Source of the DNA: Escherichia coli
GTDB taxonomy: Bacteria > Pseudomonadota > Gammaproteobacteria > Enterobacterales > Enterobacteriaceae
NCBI RefSeq assembly: GCF_017348835.2
Contig: NZ_CP071375.1
Reading direction: 5' to 3' (one strand)
Length of the DNA: 64,000 bases
The first letter of the stretch is position 1. The number at the start of each line of letters is the position of its first letter. The translations under genes and the position numbers were made by a program. The notes below the pieces were generated by a model. It had not been told where the DNA came from. It saw only the letters and a list, made by a program, of their open reading frames with translations, and made no database searches. Shown in pieces: positions 2,934 through 62,844 of this stretch.

Positions 2934-3097
2934 TGGGGGGAGTTTAGGGAAAGAGCATTTGTCAGAATATTTAAGGAATTTCTGAATACTCATAATCAAT
3001 GTAGAGATGACTAATATCCTGAAACTGACTGAACTAATTGAGTCAAACTCGGCAAGGATTCGATACTATTCCTGTGTAACTTTCTTAAGGAACGAGA

Positions 3098-3627
3098 ATG
3101 AAACAGGAAGTGGAAAAGTGGCGACCTTTTGGACATCCGGATGGTGATATTCGTGATTTATCATTTCTTGATGCTCATCAGGCTGTCTACGTTCAGCATC
3201 ATGAGGGCTAGAGTATCGCTTTTGGGTTACCTACTCTCTTCACTGCTTCACAAAAGATTATGAACATCAGACGAACGAAGAAAAACAATCGTTAATGTAC
3301 CACGCGCCTAAAGAATCTCGTCCCTTCTGCCAGCACCGTTATAACTTAGCGCGCACACACTTAAAAAGAACCATTTTGGCGCTGCCAGAAAGCAATGTTA
3401 TTCATGCCGGGTATGGTAGCTATGCCGTGATTGAGGTGGACTTAGACGGAGGAGACAAGGCATTTTACTTTGTTGCGTTCAGGGCTTTCAGGGAAAAGAA
3501 AAAACTCCGTTTGCATGTAACTAGCGCTTACCCCATTTCTGAAAAACAGAAAGGTAAATCAGTGAAATTTTTCACCATTGCCTACAATTTATTGAGAAAT
3601 AAGCAGCTTCCTCAGCCCTCAAAATAA
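3098..3627 (+). pseudogene. yjaZ: yjaZ/htrC-like heat-shock protein gene disrupted by a 1-nt frameshift
   Basis: ATG 3098 with AAGGA RBS opens a frame that stops at TAG 3209-3211 after 37 codons. The frame one base over is open from 3205 to stop 3628-3630 (141 codons). Joined length ~177 aa matches the ~179 aa recalled for HtrC. The break sits at a GGG run. Confidence 0.6.
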
Positions 3628-5170: not shown

Positions 5171-5937
5171 GCCGATGCCTCCAGAAATCCAGTCAGCGGG
5201 CTGGTGGCATGAGCAAAATGACTGCGGCTGCCCGGTCCGGACTGACGTGCCAGCAGGCCTGCTTCTACCGCCAGACGAAATGCCTTCGCCATGTTGACGG
5301 GATCGTCCGCGACGGCAATCGCCGTATTCACTAACACCGCGTCGGCCCCCATTTCCAGCGCCTGCGCGGCATGGCTGGGAACGCCGATGCCAGCATCGAC
5401 AACCACCGGAACTGTGGCCTGCTGGATAATAATCTCCAGCATGGCACGGGTTTCCAGTCCCTGATTCGAGCCAATCGGCGCGCCGAGCGGCATCACCGCT
5501 GCACAGCCGACTTCTTCCAGACGTTTACACAATACCGGATCGGCCCCGCAGTAAGGCAGCACGACAAATCCCTGTTGTACCAGCGTTTCGGCGGCTTTCA
5601 GGGTTTCGATGGGATCGGGCAACAGCCAGCGGGCGTCAGGGTGAATCTCCAATTTTAGCCAGTTTGTGCCTAACGCTTCACGTGCCAGATGGGCGGCGAA
5701 AATGGCTTCTTCCGCTGTTTTCGCCCCGGAAGTATTCGGCAGCAGGGTCACACCCGCCGCGATAAGCGGTTCGAGGATAGCGTCGTTGTGCTGGCGCAAG
5801 TCGACACGTTTCATCGCCAGTGTCACCAGCTGGCTGCCGGAAGCGCGAATCGCCTCCACCATCAGTTGTGAAGAAGCGAATTTCCCGGTGCCGGTAAACA
5901 GATGTGAATCAAACGTTTTGTCCGCAATACGTAACAT
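5167..5937 (-). CDS. thiG: Thiazole synthase
   Basis: Start taken at MLRIADKTF inside the longer ORF, giving 256 aa; overlaps thiH start by 4 nt. Confidence 0.92.
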
Positions 5938-14564: not shown

Positions 14565-14984
14565 TTACCAGTGGCCCATACCCATATGACCGCCACCACC
14601 GCAGCCGCCGTAACCCATTCCGGTACCGCGCGGAATACCCGCTTCAGCCATCGCAATATCTCGTTTCACCCGTAACTCATCTAACGACTGACGCAAATTC
14701 TCCATCTCTTTGGCGACCGCGTTAATTTTGCTGCTATCCGGTGGGTTCGCGGCTAACAGGGCATTGTATTCATAACGCTTCGTCACCAGTTGCTGTTGCA
14801 GTGCGCTGCTTTGAGCGTAAAAGTCATTATGGATTTTCTGCCACGCTGTCTGTTGTTCGCTGGTCAAAGGCGCGGCATTTTGCTGCCACATACCGTGTCC
14901 GCCGTGAGCAAATGCAGATGTCGATCCCATCGCCATTGCTGAAAGCGCCATCATTACCAGGGCAATTTTCGTGTTCCGTTTCAT
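14565..14984 (-). CDS. zraP: Periplasmic zinc-resistance-associated chaperone
   Basis: Start taken at MKRNTKIALVMMALSAMA (signal peptide); Gly/His-rich C-terminus GGCGGGGHMGMGHW. Confidence 0.9.
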   Translation of the reverse strand: MKRNTKIALVMMALSAMAMGSTSAFAHGGHGMWQQNAAPLTSEQQTAWQKIHNDFYAQSSALQQQLVTKRYEYNALLAANPPDSSKINAVAKEMENLRQSLDELRVKRDIAMAEAGIPRGTGMGYGGCGGGGHMGMGHW

Positions 14985-15019
14985 GGTTAATCCTCCAGTG
15001 GTTGTCTTACTTCGGGTAT

Positions 15020-15190
15020 TGCATTTTCCGTGCCAACGGTGAAACGCTGATATGACGGGCAATCTGGCGTGATAGGCGAGTAAAAATGACTCGCCTGCTG
15101 CGGGTGGCGAGTCATTTTTACTCATTGAAACTTAAGTCTTTGTGTTACAGCGCAGGGTAAGCGCTGATAAAAGATGGCATGATTTCTGCT
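15020..15190. promoter_or_regulatory. Divergent sigma-54-type promoters for zraP and zraSR
   Basis: Minus strand TGGCACGGAAAATGCA at 15020-15035; plus strand TGGCATGATTTCTGCT at 15175-15190. Both show GG-N10-GC spacing. Confidence 0.55.
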
Positions 15191-56319: not shown

Positions 56320-57192
56320 ATGCTGCCCGACTCATCAGTCCGTTTAAATAAATACATCAGCGAAAGCGGAATTTGCTCACGCCGCGAAGCGGATCGCTAT
56401 ATCGAGCAAGGCAATGTGTTCCTTAATGGCAAGCGAGCCACCATTGGCGATCAGGTGAAACCCGGCGACGTTGTGAAAGTAAACGGTCAGTTGATTGAGC
56501 CTCGGGAAGCCGAAGATTTGGTACTTATCGCCTTGAACAAGCCCGTCGGTATTGTCAGCACCACCGAAGATGGCGAGCGCGATAACATTGTCGATTTCGT
56601 TAACCACAGCAAACGCGTGTTCCCGATTGGTCGTCTGGATAAAGATTCCCAGGGGCTGATTTTCCTCACCAACCACGGTGATCTGGTGAATAAGATCCTG
56701 CGTGCTGGCAATGATCATGAAAAAGAGTATTTGGTAACGGTCGATAAACCGATTACCGATGAATTTATTCGTGGTATGGGGGCGGGAGTGCCGATCCTCG
56801 GGACGGTGACGAAAAAGTGCAAAGTCAAAAAAGAAGCACCGTTTGTCTTCCGCATTACCCTGGTGCAGGGGTTGAACCGTCAGATCCGTCGCATGTGCGA
56901 GCACTTTGGTTACGAAGTGAAAAAGCTGGAACGTACGCGCATTATGAACGTCAGCTTAAGCGGCATTCCGCTGGGTGAGTGGCGCGATTTAACTGACGAT
57001 GAGTTAATCGACCTCTTTAAGCTCATCGAAAATTCCTCTTCCGAGGCAAAACCTAAAGCGAAGGCCAAACCGAAAACAGCGGGCATCAAACGTCCAGTCG
57101 TTAAGATGGAAAAAACGGCGGAAAAAGGCGGTCGCCCGGCGTCCAACGGTAAGCGTTTTACCTCGCCGGGGCGAAAAAAGAAGGGGCGCTAA
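56320..57192 (+). CDS. rluF: 23S rRNA pseudouridine synthase F
   Basis: 290-aa ORF with S4 domain and RsuA-type catalytic core; Lys/Ala-rich tail. Confidence 0.93.
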
Positions 57193-57465
57193 TCAGCGCC
57201 TGCCGCGCGTCGACGTATTTGCTGACCAGCTAAATGACGCTTCAGGATCCGGTTTATAAGCCTGCTTTTTCTTTAACTGGCGGGCTTTTTTCGCTTCAGC
57301 CTCACGCTCGACCATTAATTTATCGATGTACTCTTTCTTAATGCTGTTGGTTTCGGAGTTGGTCAGTACGCGACCATGCGCAATCCGCGCCCGATCCAGC
57401 AGTGTTTTAAGTTCACGTTGCTCGCGTTCAGTCATCTCTTTTTGAGTAATACGGGGGAGTGCCAT
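57193..57465 (-). CDS. yjbD: DUF3811-family small protein
   Basis: 90-aa ORF; its stop codon abuts the rluF stop codon. Confidence 0.85.
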   Translation of the reverse strand: MALPRITQKEMTEREQRELKTLLDRARIAHGRVLTNSETNSIKKEYIDKLMVEREAEAKKARQLKKKQAYKPDPEASFSWSANTSTRGRR

Positions 57466-57678
57466 GATGGTGCCCTCAGTGAGCCAGAGAGTTCAGTGTA
57501 CGGGAATTCGTTTGCGAGCAGAACTGATAATATTCCTTTGTTCTCTTCTTAAATATTTATCTTTCTTGATAATTGACGATAAATACAGATACAAATTTAG
57601 CGAAAAAATCTCCCCCTACAAACAACAATGATTTATTAAATCTTTATTTTTCATGTAATTAAAATTTTTTATCACTTC

Positions 57679-57694
57679 TGGCACGCTTCTCGCA
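57679..57694 (+). promoter_or_regulatory. Candidate sigma-54-type promoter ~300 nt upstream of the SPFH gene
   Basis: TGGCACGCTTCTCGCA with GG-N10-GC spacing; motif match only. Confidence 0.3.
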
Positions 57695-57993
57695 ATAACA
57701 CTTTTGCGTTGATACTGAATTACAAAGGGGGTTAAACCCCGTCGGCACACCAGGAACGGCCAGGCTGTTTTCCGGGCGTGTTCCGTCAGCCTTTGACGCC
57801 AATTACGGGTTCGATTCCCACATTCATTCCTGAAATGAATACTGGTTGTAACTTATTAAATAAAAAATGAGGGATTGCGCAGTCTGCGGTCCCCGATAAC
57901 GTCACCGATAAAGATGCCGGGTAACAGGCAAAAGGGAATTCCCCTGTCGCTTCGTGTCTGCTTCCGCGACGGCTATTAAGCAAGGAATAGATA

Positions 57994-59121
57994 ATGATTA
58001 AAAAAATAAGCGTAAGAAAAGATCAGCTGGCATTACTCTCCAGAAACGGCGATTACTACAAAGTGCTGCATGCAGGCGAGCATATTTTACCCTGGTTAAA
58101 TACCCCGGAAGTGTTGCTGATTACGCTGGATGGTAGCGAAGTTCCCGACGTGCTTGCGGATTATTTGCGCCGCTTTCAGCCTGATTGGGTGGAGAAATAT
58201 TGCCTGGTGGCAGACTTGTCGGAGACTGAAGCCGGGGTGTTGTATATGGACGGTATTTTGTTGGAGATCCTGCCGCCATCAACGCGTCGTTTGTACTGGC
58301 GTGTAGAGGATGATTTGACGCTGGTGCGGATGAATACGCAGCAAGTCCCGGTACAAACGGAGGTGATGAATGCGGTATTACAGCCACGGCGCAAAGGAGT
58401 TGTTAAAGGCCGCGATGCGATACTGACGGTGCAGGTTCCGGCCTGGCATGTAGGCGTGCTGAAAATCGATGGTGAAACGCAGGCGCTGTTACCGCCGGGG
58501 CTGACTGCGTACTGGAAAATAAATCATCTGGTTGAAGCTGAAGTTGTCGACACCCGCTTGCAGGTACTGGAAGTCAGCGGGCAAGAAATCTTAACGAAAG
58601 ATAAGGTCAATCTGCGGATTAATCTCGCCGCTAACTGGCGCTATAGCGATGTGTTGCTGGCATTTAGTCAGCTAACGAAGCCGATTGATCATTTGTATCG
58701 GGAATTACAATTTGCCCTGCGTGAAGCGGTAGGTACGCGCACACTGGATGAACTGCTGGAAGATAAACAGGTCATTGATGACGTTGTTAGCGAGCAGGTG
58801 AAACTACGCATGAAGCCGTTCGGTATGGAGATCGCTTCGTTAGGAGTAAAAGATATCGTCCTGCCTGGCGATATGAAAAATATTCTTGCGCAACTGGTAG
58901 AGGCGGAGAAATCCGCGCAGGCCAATGTGATTCGCCGACGTGAAGAAACGGCAGCGACGCGCTCGTTACTGAACACCGCCAAAGTCATGGAGAACAATCC
59001 GGTAGCGTTGCGTTTAAAAGAGCTGGAAACGCTGGAGAGAGTGGCTGAGCGGATTGATAACATCTCTGTATTTGGCGGTCTGGATCAGGTTCTGCATGGG
59101 TTGGTTAATATCAAAGGGTGA
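57994..59121 (+). CDS. SPFH/band-7 (stomatin-like) domain protein with an unassigned ~180-aa N-terminal region
   Basis: 375-aa ORF with RBS. C-terminal half (GQEILTKDKVNLRINLAANWRY...IASLGVKDIVLPGDMKNILAQLVEAEKSAQANVIRRRE...) is stomatin/prohibitin-like. No obvious transmembrane helix. Confidence 0.7.
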   Translation: MIKKISVRKDQLALLSRNGDYYKVLHAGEHILPWLNTPEVLLITLDGSEVPDVLADYLRRFQPDWVEKYCLVADLSETEAGVLYMDGILLEILPPSTRRLYWRVEDDLTLVRMNTQQVPVQTEVMNAVLQPRRKGVVKGRDAILTVQVPAWHVGVLKIDGETQALLPPGLTAYWKINHLVEAEVVDTRLQVLEVSGQEILTKDKVNLRINLAANWRYSDVLLAFSQLTKPIDHLYRELQFALREAVGTRTLDELLEDKQVIDDVVSEQVKLRMKPFGMEIASLGVKDIVLPGDMKNILAQLVEAEKSAQANVIRRREETAATRSLLNTAKVMENNPVALRLKELETLERVAERIDNISVFGGLDQVLHGLVNIKG

Positions 59122-59126
59122 GTAAC

Positions 59127-59918
59127 ATGCCATTAAATGGAGTCAGTGCTGCGATGCGCGAAAGGGTATCGCAGCAGTTAAAAGAAATTGAACGTCGCTA
59201 TGGCGTGAAAGTGCTGTACGCCTGCGAATCGGGGAGTCGCGGCTGGGGATTTGCTTCGCCCGACAGCGATTACGATGTGCGGTTTTTGTATGTCCATCCG
59301 CTGGAATGGTATCTGCGGGTAGAGGCACCACGCGATGTTATCGAACTGCCCATCGACGACGAGTTAGATGTTTCCGGTTGGGAATGGCGCAAAGCGCTGG
59401 GATTGCTGAAAGGTGCGAATCCCACGCTAATTGAATGGCTGGATTCACCGGTGGTCTATCAGCAAGATGAAGAGACGATAACGGCGCTTAAGGCAATGGT
59501 CCCAACGTGGTTTTCTCCGTTGCGTGCGCGCTGGCATTACTATTCGATGGCGCAGAAAAACTTCCGCGGATATTTGCAGGGCGATGAAGTTCGACTGAAA
59601 AAATACTTTTACGTGCTGCGTCCGTTGCTGGCCGTGCGTTGGGTTGAAGCGGGAAAAGGCGTACCGCCAATGCGTTTTTCCGAATTGCTGGCGGGAAGTG
59701 AGTTGGATGCGGCCTTACGCGCAGAAATAGATGAATTACTGGAACGTAAACAGCGTGCGGGTGAAGCGGAATATGGCCCACGCCGTCCATTGCTACATGC
59801 GTTTATCCATGCGGAACTGGCGCGTGGGGAAATTCCGCCTGTGTTACCGGATAGTAGAGAAGGGGACGTTAAGAAACTGGATAGCTTACTGTACCAGACG
59901 GTAATGCGCCGGGCGTGA
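59127..59918 (+). CDS. Pol-beta-superfamily nucleotidyltransferase
   Basis: 263 aa from ATG 59127 (a GTG at 59118 would overlap the upstream stop by 4 nt); motif GSRGWGFASPDSDYDV fits GS-x10-DhDh. Confidence 0.7.
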   Translation: MPLNGVSAAMRERVSQQLKEIERRYGVKVLYACESGSRGWGFASPDSDYDVRFLYVHPLEWYLRVEAPRDVIELPIDDELDVSGWEWRKALGLLKGANPTLIEWLDSPVVYQQDEETITALKAMVPTWFSPLRARWHYYSMAQKNFRGYLQGDEVRLKKYFYVLRPLLAVRWVEAGKGVPPMRFSELLAGSELDAALRAEIDELLERKQRAGEAEYGPRRPLLHAFIHAELARGEIPPVLPDSREGDVKKLDSLLYQTVMRRA

Positions 59919-59950: not shown

Positions 59951-60880
59951 TTATTCTTGTGCACTTCCGCTGATTTCATTTTGTATATGCGTTGCAATAT
60001 CGCAATTGGTTGCCGCTTGTGAACTAAATATCATCTTCTCACGCGAATACACCGCAAACTTATCTGCCAGGTTTGAAGCAAACACCTTGCTGGCATTTTC
60101 TGCTAGCAAATCGGTAACGATATCATGGTGATTTTTATCCACTTTGCGGGCGATATTTCCCGCCTCTTTGTCCTTATTATACCCTTCGTTGGTGCTTTCC
60201 CAGCTTAATGCCGCTGAGGTGGTTTTTATCATGACTTCTGTTCGGTAGCCTGCATCTTTGAGTTTTTTTAATGTTTGTAGCGGCGTAGCGGCATTACGAA
60301 ATGTTCCTTCGACAACAATATTGAGTTTATTGGCTATGGCCCTCTCTATTGCACGTTCGACCGTTTCGCCGGAAAATTTTGCCGTATGGGTAACAAAATC
60401 GTCGCCATAAGTTTGATATATATAATTAAAATCAGGGTGTAGAAATCTGAAATCATCACCATTAATAATCATTATATTATTCTTTGTTTCCCTTTTTGCT
60501 AATTCGATTAGGGCGGATTTTCCGGCTCCTGGTTGTCCACCTAAAACAAAACCAATGGGACTCTGCTGGGATGTGACGTCATGGTTTGTCAGACGCTGCC
60601 AAATAGAATCAAAAGACGCTTTATTTTCTGAATGCGCAGTATTATTAAATTCACGCTGATACTTTTTTCTGACCTGCTGGAGGCGTAACTTTCCCTGTGT
60701 AAAATCAACAAGTTCTGCTGGAGTGGAATAAAGATTGTCGCGATAGCTGACTAATTGTGATAGCTCATCGTCTGAGTCCTGAACTTGTGAGGAAAAACAA
60801 CTGTCGACGATATTTGATAAAAACGCGATGCACTGACTGGTGCCGTTTAAAAGTGCATCTTTTTCCATTAAAGTAGCCAT
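59951..60880 (-). CDS. Zeta-toxin-family kinase with ~100-aa N-terminal extension (EzeT-like)
   Basis: 309 aa from ATG 60880 with AGGAG RBS; Walker A GGQPGAGKS ~115 residues from the N-terminus; AT-rich codon usage. Confidence 0.65.
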   Translation of the reverse strand: MATLMEKDALLNGTSQCIAFLSNIVDSCFSSQVQDSDDELSQLVSYRDNLYSTPAELVDFTQGKLRLQQVRKKYQREFNNTAHSENKASFDSIWQRLTNHDVTSQQSPIGFVLGGQPGAGKSALIELAKRETKNNIMIINGDDFRFLHPDFNYIYQTYGDDFVTHTAKFSGETVERAIERAIANKLNIVVEGTFRNAATPLQTLKKLKDAGYRTEVMIKTTSAALSWESTNEGYNKDKEAGNIARKVDKNHHDIVTDLLAENASKVFASNLADKFAVYSREKMIFSSQAATNCDIATHIQNEISGSAQE

Positions 60881-60981
60881 TAACACTCCTGTTAAATAAT
60901 ATTTTTCGGTGATTATAATACTGTTCTACAGGAGTGATTTTGCATTTCAGATATTATTTAATCTATGTTTGCAGTGAGGAT

Positions 60982-62399: not shown

Positions 62400-62640
62400 T
62401 TTCAGCCTTGGCACAAGGGAAGAGCGGAAGACGGGTGGGCGCAGAGCGATACTTCGCTACTATTTTCACCCAGAAGTGCTCCACCACTTGCGAAACGCCC
62501 GACTGCGAACGCTTCTGGTGACAACCCAGGGGATTCAGCCCCTGTAGCCGATGATGAACGTGGCCAGCCGTTCAATCACCTCGGCGATGCACCCCCTCAG
62601 GTGTTATCACAGGACTGGCTCCTCCAACACCGTTACTTGG
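62400..62640 (-). promoter_or_regulatory. Lysine riboswitch (LYS element) in the lysC leader
   Basis: Long structured leader within the ~525-bp divergent lysC-pgi region; assigned from the known lysC leader, boundaries approximate. Confidence 0.5.
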
Positions 62641-62844
62641 GCAACGCGCCTCTTCTGGCCTGCGCTAGCGCAGGTAGTACATTTATAAATAAAGGGTGAG
62701 CGGGGCGGTTGTCAACGACGGGGTCATGCGGATTTTTCATCCACTCCTGGCGGTCAGTAGTTCAGCTAATAAATGCTTCACTGCGCTAAGGGTTTACACT
62801 CAACATTACGCTAACGGCACTAAAACCATCACATTTTTCTGTGA

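Follow-up and report, generated by a model that had tools for sequence, protein, structure and literature searches.

A predicted RtcR-type sigma-54 promoter and a conserved structured leader RNA upstream of an orphan slipin-rlaP module in Escherichia coli

The slipin-rlaP locus

We analysed a 64,000-nucleotide stretch of Escherichia coli DNA (the window hereafter; assembly GCF_017348835.2, contig NZ_CP071375.1) and focused on positions 57679-57993, directly upstream of a gene for a slipin, a protein of the SPFH type. A preliminary description of this segment, made from its letters alone, had proposed a sigma-54-like promoter followed by a long structured leader. The segment forms part of a 528-bp gap between yjbD and the slipin gene, which is itself followed after 5 nt by rlaP:

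57193-57465, minus strand: yjbD (DUF3811), the upstream neighbour of the slipin gene
57982-57987, plus strand: Shine-Dalgarno sequence AAGGAA of the slipin gene, outside all conserved helices of the leader
57994-59121, plus strand: slipin/SPFH gene, 375 aa, annotated as a slipin family protein (Pfam Band_7, E = 1.8e-26)
59127-59918, plus strand: rlaP, an annotated coding sequence for a nucleotidyltransferase in the Pol-beta family linked to RNA repair (Pfam PF10127 RlaP, E = 1.1e-96)

The slipin is stomatin-like over residues 181-373 (matching the PDB stomatin structure 3bk6 at residues 181-356, E = 3.7e-22) and carries an N-terminal domain of ~150 aa that is specific to its subfamily; no membrane segment was evident when the sequence was read by eye, with no predictor run. 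RlaP adds one or two nucleoside monophosphates to the 3'-OH of damaged RNA (PMC12776372). The slipins of Providencia, Gilliamella, Snodgrassella and Xenorhabdus are longer, at ~500-520 aa, and tblastn matched their N-terminal domain twice (loci L021, L029-L032, L042, L045 and L049, with matches of ~1500 nt vs ~1125 nt elsewhere), so that this domain appears to be duplicated in them.

The full intergenic region is carried by 1628 of 5426 complete E. coli genomes (~30%). Because the module occurs in only this fraction of strains, the SPFH gene is accessory and not the housekeeping gene for which it had been taken, and its subfamily is embedded in Rtc RNA-repair operons, as described below. In K-12-like genomes yjbD adjoins lysC directly and the likeness to the window ends at ~57595; for the right end of the island, no alignment to the K-12-type empty site was obtained.

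The sigma-54 promoter motif

Sigma-54 promoters start transcription ~12 nt downstream of the -12 element and need rpoN together with an activator ATPase, which acts from an enhancer some 80-150 nt upstream; an IHF site often lies between enhancer and promoter. The first two elements of interest here are:

57679-57694, plus strand: sigma-54-type -24/-12 element TGGCACGCTTCTCGCA, 315 nt before the slipin ATG at 57994
57704-57706, plus strand: predicted transcription start, ~12 nt after the -12 GC, placed by the usual sigma-54 geometry

TGGCACGCTTCTCGCA has GG at -24 and GC at -12 with the correct spacing between them, and departs from TGGCAC-N5-TTGCW at one specified position (TCGC for TTGC). 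As a motif it does not rise above chance, with 6 matches of at most one mismatch in the window vs 3.2 expected. A second and equally good match, TGGCACGGAAAATGCA (11/12), lies at 15020-15035 on the minus strand within an open reading frame (ORF) of 186 aa (14565-15125, minus strand), and probably either arises by chance or is an intragenic site. The window alone leaves the question undecided, since the motif is not above chance and the folding energy of the leader is unremarkable; comparison with other genomes settles it.

To make this comparison we scanned one genome per species for the same slipin subfamily (545 clusters at E <= 1e-30), which gave 80 loci. A divergent rtcR lies directly upstream of the slipin gene in 52 of them, and is followed on the other side mostly by rtcB and rlaP and often by rtcA, in the order slipin-rtcB-rlaP-rtcA. 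The order in Pseudomonas aeruginosa is rtcR, the tRNA gene PA4581.1, PA4582 (SPFH), rtcB, PA4584 (RlaP) and rtcA (PMC8619066, PMC13086221, PMC8743555). Superficieibacter, Mangrovibacter, Hafnia and Pseudocitrobacter carry rtcR with slipin-rlaP and without rtcB. Because the related loci are so arranged, the E. coli module can be read as the slipin-rlaP core of an Rtc operon that lacks its adjacent rtcR.

The same -24/-12 motif, TGGCACG-N4-T(C/G/T)GCW, occurs at the same position and on the slipin strand in all 49 rtcR-slipin intergenic regions, scoring 11/12 in 37, 10/12 in 11 and 9/12 in one, at 112-181 nt from the rtcR ATG and 308-685 nt from the slipin ATG. TCGC or TGGC in place of TTGC is the norm among these orthologous promoters. 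In 1.82 Mb of loci, counted on both strands, there are 46 matches of at least 11/12, most of which are these very promoters, and a comparable match arises by background roughly once per 260 kb. Within E. coli, the element is invariant in three alleles that are 94-100% identical overall and differ at 5-6% of intergenic positions, and the extended promoter, TTCTGGCACGCTTCTCGCAAT, resembles that of K-12 rtcBA, TTCTGGCACGACGGTTGCAAT.

These data bear on the simplest alternative, namely that the likeness to a sigma-54 promoter is coincidental and that a sigma-70-type promoter serves the slipin gene. The lack of enrichment in the window and the equally good match inside the ORF at 15035 would suit it. 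They are opposed by the recurrence of the motif in every orthologous region from Enterobacterales to beta-proteobacteria, always beside rtcR, by the enhancer repeats that accompany it, and by a simple consensus scan of 57100-58300 that found no sigma-70-like promoter, nor any plus-strand terminator, leader included. We regard a chance match as very unlikely. TGGCACGCTTCTCGCA is very probably a real sigma-54 promoter, derived from an Rtc RNA-repair operon.

Enhancer repeats, an IHF-like site and the resident RtcR

RtcR is an enhancer-binding protein that activates the sigma-54-dependent rtcBA operon for RNA repair (PMC7790460, PMC9650030); the promoter of this operon is reported to have an RtcR upstream activating sequence and an IHF site (PMC9650030). 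Counterparts of both precede the window promoter:

57557-57593, plus strand: predicted RtcR enhancer, TTATC-N6-GATAA-N5-CGATAA-N5-GATAC, located by weight matrix and alignment
57649-57661, plus strand: IHF-like site TTTCATGTAATTA, within the AT-rich stretch between enhancer and promoter, so named by pattern resemblance

Enterobacterial loci have a common block, TTATCC-N5-GATAA-N5-CGATA-N6-GATAA, beside the rtcR start codon. We derived a weight matrix from the blocks next to rtcR in 9 other enterobacterial genera, without using the window; it returned 57557-57593 as a single outlier at 18.3 bits, the next unrelated match among 128,000 positions on both strands scoring -2.8. In Providencia, Proteus, Xenorhabdus, Pseudomonas and Burkholderia, too, the matrix finds the site beside rtcR. 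The window block aligns with its orthologs and with the K-12 rtcR-rtcB region, which has GATA/TATC repeats, and TTTCATGTAATTA aligns with a conserved block (T/A)TCA-N4/5-ATTAAAA that every enterobacterial ortholog and the K-12 rtcBA region contain. The predicted enhancer and the IHF-like block together give the upstream architecture of a sigma-54 promoter.

The module itself comprises only slipin and rlaP, with neither the RtcB ligase nor the RtcA cyclase of an Rtc operon, but an activator that may be able to read the homologous promoter and enhancer is at hand. rtcR is carried by 5424 of the 5426 E. coli genomes, unlinked to this locus and beside rtcBA, and the C-terminal DNA-binding segment of RtcR, SLSxAGRxLFxVSRQ...NDADRLRKYLARFGL, shows little or no difference between K-12 RtcR and the slipin-linked RtcRs. 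Given this matching segment and the near-universal presence of rtcR, we infer that the unlinked resident RtcR can drive the orphan promoter in trans. Cross-recognition of the window enhancer is plausible rather than stronger, because rtcR is not adjacent, the enhancer-promoter spacing differs from that of the orthologs and the rtcBA enhancer matches the matrix weakly. As judged from sequence, what survives is a complete control region of enhancer repeats, IHF-like site and promoter, while the flanking rtcR and rtcB have been lost.

K-12-like empty sites hold a decayed copy of the RtcR-type enhancer, TTATCTCTTTCGATAATTAATTAGAGATGCAGATAA, upstream of yjbD (positions 3092-3130 of locus L002; 3.7 bits), and the window enhancer falls within the part that is common to empty-site strains. 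Since these strains keep the decayed enhancer, the pattern suggests that the slipin-rlaP module was lost from their lineages rather than gained here.

The promoter half of the preliminary description thus holds up well: the motif that it placed about 300 nt before the start codon stands at 315 nt, the orthologous promoters adjoin rtcR and the window keeps matching enhancer repeats, as expected for an enhancer-dependent promoter, and the tight conditional control that it drew from this has the same comparative support.

A conserved multi-domain RNA in the leader

The leader is ~290 nt long here and 300-680 nt long behind the promoter in the 49 rtcR-slipin regions. From ~57705 to the ATG it can be aligned over ten enterobacterial genera and, further out, to Hafnia, Xenorhabdus, Proteus and Providencia. 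We assembled a consensus structure from RNAalifold output and pair counts over 15 Enterobacterales leaders. It holds 55 pairs in eight helices that are 90.3% paired, vs 41-47% in controls whose partners were slid by 1-3 columns; compensatory changes occur in 42 of the 55 pairs, and the covariation of 0.48 (0.09-0.15 in the slid controls) was reached by none of 500 shuffles. Because many of the conserved G-U pairs would turn into A-C mismatches if read from the opposite strand, the conserved RNA lies on the plus strand. Its elements are:

57724-57730 with 57737-57742, plus strand: helix P2, six pairs, all with compensatory changes, 95.6% paired
57743-57751 with 57775-57785, plus strand: helix P3, the long hairpin of the 5' domain, 96.7% paired
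57755-57760 with 57764-57769, plus strand: helix P4, inside P3, 96.6% paired
57806-57809 with 57817-57820, plus strand: tRNA T-arm remnant CGGG-TTCGATT-CCCA, loop TTCGATT
57822-57840, plus strand: local hairpin ATTCATT/AATGAAT, directly after the T-arm, with one covarying pair (C/T-G/A)
57871-57877 with 57887-57893, plus strand: middle hairpin GGGATTG...CGGTCCC, seven pairs, all with compensatory changes, 72-75% paired, of moderate support
57900-57909 with 57962-57971 and 57913-57932 with 57939-57958, plus strand: long 3' hairpin, ending 22 nt before the ATG

The best-supported helix is P3/P4 (57743-57785), in which 9 of 14 pairs carry compensatory changes and which the preliminary description did not list. 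A covariance model of it, R1, matched 24 loci, always at the homologous leader position and nowhere else in 955 kb, including loci of Pseudomonas, Burkholderia and several beta-proteobacteria, with no match in K-12 rtcBA (L003). The covariation of P3/P4 persists over the R1-matched taxa, in an alignment that had been fitted to R1. Because MAFFT misaligned the 5' strand of P2 in short sub-alignments, R1 treats P2 as unpaired. The long 3' hairpin comprises 24 pairs, 18 with compensatory changes, and is 84-93% paired; its covariance model, R2, matched directly upstream of the slipin gene in all Enterobacterales loci as well as in Snodgrassella and Gilliamella, including loci that had not been used in building it. 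Both models match leaders only. The local hairpin at 57822-57840 is kept only in the group of E. coli, Phytobacter, Pseudocitrobacter and Pluralibacter.

Searches of Rfam with 8 kb at E <= 1 and with 57690-57993 at E <= 10 matched nothing in the leader, except that the second gave a meaningless small nucleolar RNA match on the other strand; the orthologous leaders had no match at gathering scores except to tRNA, and no riboswitch or other curated cis-regulatory RNA of Rfam 15 was matched.

The long structured leader of the preliminary description is therefore borne out by the 55-pair consensus, and the conserved structure that it wished to see in homologous leaders is present in the 15 from Enterobacterales, while the Rfam covariance-model scan that it proposed returned no family. 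Its five hairpins are all present as sequence, but only two are conserved pairings: GGGGGTTAAACCCC (57727-57740), which is P2 without two further outer pairs, and ATTCAT/ATGAAT. Of the others, GGGAATTCCC is 53% paired and not conserved, CGCAG/CTGCG would have a 1-nt loop and gives way to the conserved GGGATTG/CGGTCCC pairing there, and GTCGC...GCGAC (73% paired) is outcompeted, since both of its arms are 3' strands of the long hairpin at 57900-57971. Rather than a plain 5' untranslated region, the leader is better read as the carrier of a non-coding RNA with a degenerate tRNA-like element.

Several further pairings were considered and set aside. CGCTG/CGGCG upstream of P2 and GGAAC/GTTCC lost to P3 on pair counts. 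The minimum free energy fold offered a cloverleaf-like closing stem, ACACCAG/CTGGTTGT, which needs P3 bases and is not conserved, and a pairing of the 5' end with the Shine-Dalgarno sequence, which is broken in the E. coli allele of GYX208 with no compensating change. An RNAalifold run on an alignment that included the promoter paired promoter DNA with the leader and was discarded.

Two other features overlap these helices. An 11-codon ORF (57835-57870, plus strand; MNTGCNLLNKK) begins within the 3' arm of the local hairpin. Phytobacter has GTG in place of its ATG, the region aligns poorly in more distant genera, and the ORF is probably not a leader peptide. On the minus strand, the terminator scan read the complement of P2 (57728-57740) as terminator-like, GGGGTTTAACCCC followed by CTTTGTAATT; this is probably incidental, because the G-U pairs of the neighbouring helices put the RNA on the plus strand.

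The T-arm and its tRNA-like relatives

The most conserved block of the leader, GGTTCGAWTCC (GGGTTCGAWTCCC), is a textbook tRNA T-arm. The T-arm sequence GGGTTCGATTCCC is invariant in 15 of 15 Enterobacterales leaders, with a stem that covaries. A tRNA T-arm has a 5-bp stem closing a 7-nt TTCRAWT loop; in E. coli alleles the stem has 3-4 bp, and its outer pair is a C-A mismatch in this allele and U-A or U-G in other E. coli alleles.

In more distant loci the block aligns with the T-arm of tRNA-like genes located at the same place. ARAGORN and the Rfam tRNA model found one or two such genes at the homologous leader position in Pseudomonas, Burkholderia, Chitinimonas, Rhodocyclales, Gilliamella, Snodgrassella and others, for which P. 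aeruginosa PA4581.1 provides an annotated example (PMC8743555). Examples, in coordinates that put the slipin gene at ~6001, are:

5560-5705: tRNA-like gene(s) of locus L016
5579-5717: tRNA-like gene(s) of L019
5575-5714: tRNA-like gene(s) of L052
5666-5738: tRNA-like gene of L015
5651-5724: tRNA-like gene of L036
5646-5720: tRNA-like gene of L029, with others elsewhere

These genes have acceptor, D and T arms in common and anticodon stems that covary, but their anticodon loops vary and measure 5-7 nt; ARAGORN labels them 'tRNA-???' or gives odd anticodons (AAA, ACG, AGG, ATT, CAT). Because the loops differ in both sequence and length, the genes are unlikely to decode; such variation would be in keeping with a decoy or sentinel that anticodon nucleases attack. 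Across Enterobacterales the element is eroded stepwise: an acceptor-like GCRAA/TTYGC pairing still surrounds the T-arm in Enterobacter, Kosakonia, Siccibacter, Superficieibacter and Mangrovibacter; in E. coli, Phytobacter, Pseudocitrobacter and Pluralibacter the 5' acceptor strand is gone and the local hairpin stands in its place; and in one Providencia locus the T-arm is wholly lost. The window fails as a tRNA gene and yet, by alignment, retains the most constrained part of the element.

The main alternative for the RNA is a cis-regulatory role, in which the leader would act as a riboswitch, an attenuator or a protein-binding translational operator that gates the slipin gene after RtcR-dependent initiation. 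A long, conserved and structured RNA between a promoter and its first gene is what such a role would look like, and the 3' hairpin, conserved in Enterobacterales, Gilliamella and Snodgrassella, comes within 22 nt of the ATG. Set against this, the leader contains no intrinsic terminator on the plus strand, no conserved pairing covers the Shine-Dalgarno site, the possible pairing of that site with the 5' end, seen when the sequence is folded singly, is broken in a second E. coli allele, no riboswitch or leader family of Rfam is matched, and the complete tRNA-like genes of the relatives are gene-like rather than switch-like. We consider a cis-acting element improbable, and we do not think that the leader is a ligand-sensing riboswitch.

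Neighbouring features

Beyond rlaP, the window contains two further features of the neighbourhood:

59951-60886, minus strand: zeta-toxin-family gene, convergent to slipin-rlaP, with lysC beyond it
62466-62662, minus strand: canonical lysine riboswitch upstream of lysC (Rfam RF00168, 99.5 bits), an ordinary member of its family

The product of the former is a P-loop protein of 311 aa (Pfam Zeta_toxin, E = 6e-39) with an N-terminal extension of ~100 aa. This gene is variable cargo: strain CUVET16-465 (L005) has a hypothetical gene, a DUF4376 gene and phage tail gene fragments in its place.

Discussion

We propose that TGGCACGCTTCTCGCA is an RtcR-type sigma-54 promoter heading a cut-down Rtc operon, slipin-rlaP, and that the leader behind it is a conserved functional RNA, a reading to which we give a probability of roughly 0.6. 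Several observations weigh against it. At the promoter, the -12 element is TCGCA and not TTGCA, and the related rtcBA promoter is reported to be weak in vitro (PMC9650030). Upstream, the place of the adjacent divergent rtcR is taken by yjbD, the enhancer lies 122 nt from the promoter vs 131-135 nt in the orthologs, and the K-12 rtcR-rtcB intergenic region, although it contains the matrix's top match there, scores a weak 4.3 bits. In the leader, single-sequence folds of 57700-57860 and 57700-57996 have z = -0.2 in both cases when compared with shuffled sequence; the tRNA-like element lacks a cloverleaf and is reduced to a T-arm whose stem has 3 Watson-Crick pairs in this allele; and neither ARAGORN, run on the window, nor the Rfam tRNA model at E <= 10 found a tRNA in the leader.

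Some of these points recur in the main alternative for the DNA, which is that the control region is a fossil: the promoter would be silent in E. coli, and slipin-rlaP, if expressed, would depend on an unrecognised promoter or on read-through. The absence of adjacent rtcR and rtcB, the shift of ~10 nt in enhancer spacing, the mismatch in the T-arm of this allele, and the ~70% of E. coli genomes that have no module and only the decayed 3.7-bit enhancer would all fit a system in decay. Other evidence runs the opposite way. Both ORFs are intact and 98-100% identical over very many E. coli contigs, and alleles with 5-6% divergence in the intergenic region still agree in the -24/-12 element and in nearly every leader helix. 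The DNA-binding segment of the resident RtcR is identical or nearly so to that of its slipin-linked counterparts, and the ~10-nt shortfall, being about one helical turn, keeps the enhancer on the same face of the DNA. Finally, because four other genera also keep slipin-rlaP without rtcB, the two-gene module is a viable unit. On balance we judge a fossil promoter unlikely.

If the module is instead under RtcR control, RNA damage would activate the unlinked E. coli RtcR encoded beside rtcBA, which would bind the enhancer at 57557-57593 while IHF bends the intervening DNA. RtcR would then remodel the sigma-54 holoenzyme and open the closed complex at 57679-57694, with transcription starting at ~57705. 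The transcript would contain the structured leader first and then slipin and rlaP, and its first ~290 nt would form a multi-domain RNA comprising the 5' hairpin domain, the invariant T-arm relic and the long 3' hairpin. This RNA may serve as a partner or cofactor of slipin and RlaP, as Y RNA does for Ro, and a partnership with the slipin/RlaP machinery is the role that we favour for the leader. A more specific version of this proposal is tentative: the leader may be an undescribed multi-domain non-coding RNA, made only when RtcR fires, that acts either as the RNA subunit of a soluble slipin assembly presenting damaged tRNA-like substrates to RlaP/RtcB, or as a sentinel or decoy whose anticodon-nuclease fragments, ending in cyclic phosphate, feed back on the CARF domain of RtcR. 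A decoy shaped by an arms race would be in keeping with the hypervariable anticodon arms of its tRNA-like relatives.

Control of Rtc operons by RtcR and sigma-54 is already known, as are SPFH-type Rtc operons with a tRNA-like RNA. Burroughs and Aravind, in Nucleic Acids Research (NAR) in 2016, reportedly described SPFH/Band-7 modules in RNA-repair operons together with a cognate 'novel tRNA-like molecule', and named RlaP. What is new is an orphan arrangement in ~30% of strains that we predict to be activated in trans, an RNA in which the T-arm is all that is left of the tRNA-like element, and conserved flanking domains that are absent from Rfam. To our knowledge, RtcR in E. coli is generally treated as controlling one operon only, rtcBA. 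The locus would be a second, unlinked target of RtcR and sigma-54. RNA damage is predicted to turn on this two-gene accessory module for RNA repair in ~30% of E. coli strains, and the RNA-damage response of E. coli would therefore differ between strains. It also brings two questions about Rtc systems, the role of slipin in RNA repair and the purpose of the co-transcribed tRNA-like RNA, into a genetically tractable host. Having no rtcB, no rtcA and only a T-arm, the E. coli form is a natural minimal version that should help to separate the role of the RNA, slipin and RlaP from ligation, and the 5' and 3' leader domains could be registered as an Rfam family.

Among known systems, the Salmonella rsr-yrlBA-rtcBA operon, whose YrlA Y RNAs are bound by Ro60/Rsr (PMC4201824, PMC7790460), offers a functional parallel: a T-arm non-coding RNA, a putative scaffold protein and RNA-repair enzymes under RtcR and sigma-54, co-transcription being predicted for the window. 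The differences are substantial. The protein partner would be an SPFH and not a TROVE protein, the leader RNA precedes the first gene instead of lying between genes, and the window contains no rsr gene, for which the related loci were not searched. The leader RNA does not qualify as a bacterial Y RNA of the YrlA type, as the leader gave no Ro-binding terminal stem, no supported pairing of its 5' and 3' ends and no Y-RNA-type match in Rfam.

For the DNA, the closest counterpart is the promoter of E. coli rtcBA, from which the activator gene rtcR diverges (Genschik et al. 1998; PMC9650030). The extended element TTCTGGCACG-N4-T(T/C)GCAAT is nearly identical, an AT-rich IHF-like block lies upstream, GATA/TATC-type repeats follow at ~120-135 nt upstream, and the DNA-binding segment of the activator is the same. 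Unlike rtcBA, the window promoter has no adjacent rtcR and drives slipin-rlaP in place of rtcB-rtcA. The rtcBA leader is also far shorter, with ~50 nt from the -12 element to the rtcB ATG and no 5' domain, vs a structured leader of ~290 nt in the window.

For the locus as a whole, the nearest relatives are the SPFH-type Rtc loci, represented by P. aeruginosa PA4581 rtcR/PA4581.1/PA4582 PaFlo8/rtcB/PA4584/rtcA (PMC8619066, PMC13086221). The E. coli locus differs from these in lacking rtcR, rtcB and rtcA and in having the tRNA-like gene reduced to a T-arm and a local hairpin, and the 3' hairpin of Enterobacterales was not detected by R2 in Pseudomonas or Burkholderia leaders. In common with them it has a slipin of the same subfamily (56-58% identity), RlaP, the promoter, the enhancer and the 5' leader domain, and a T-arm at the very position of the tRNA-like gene.

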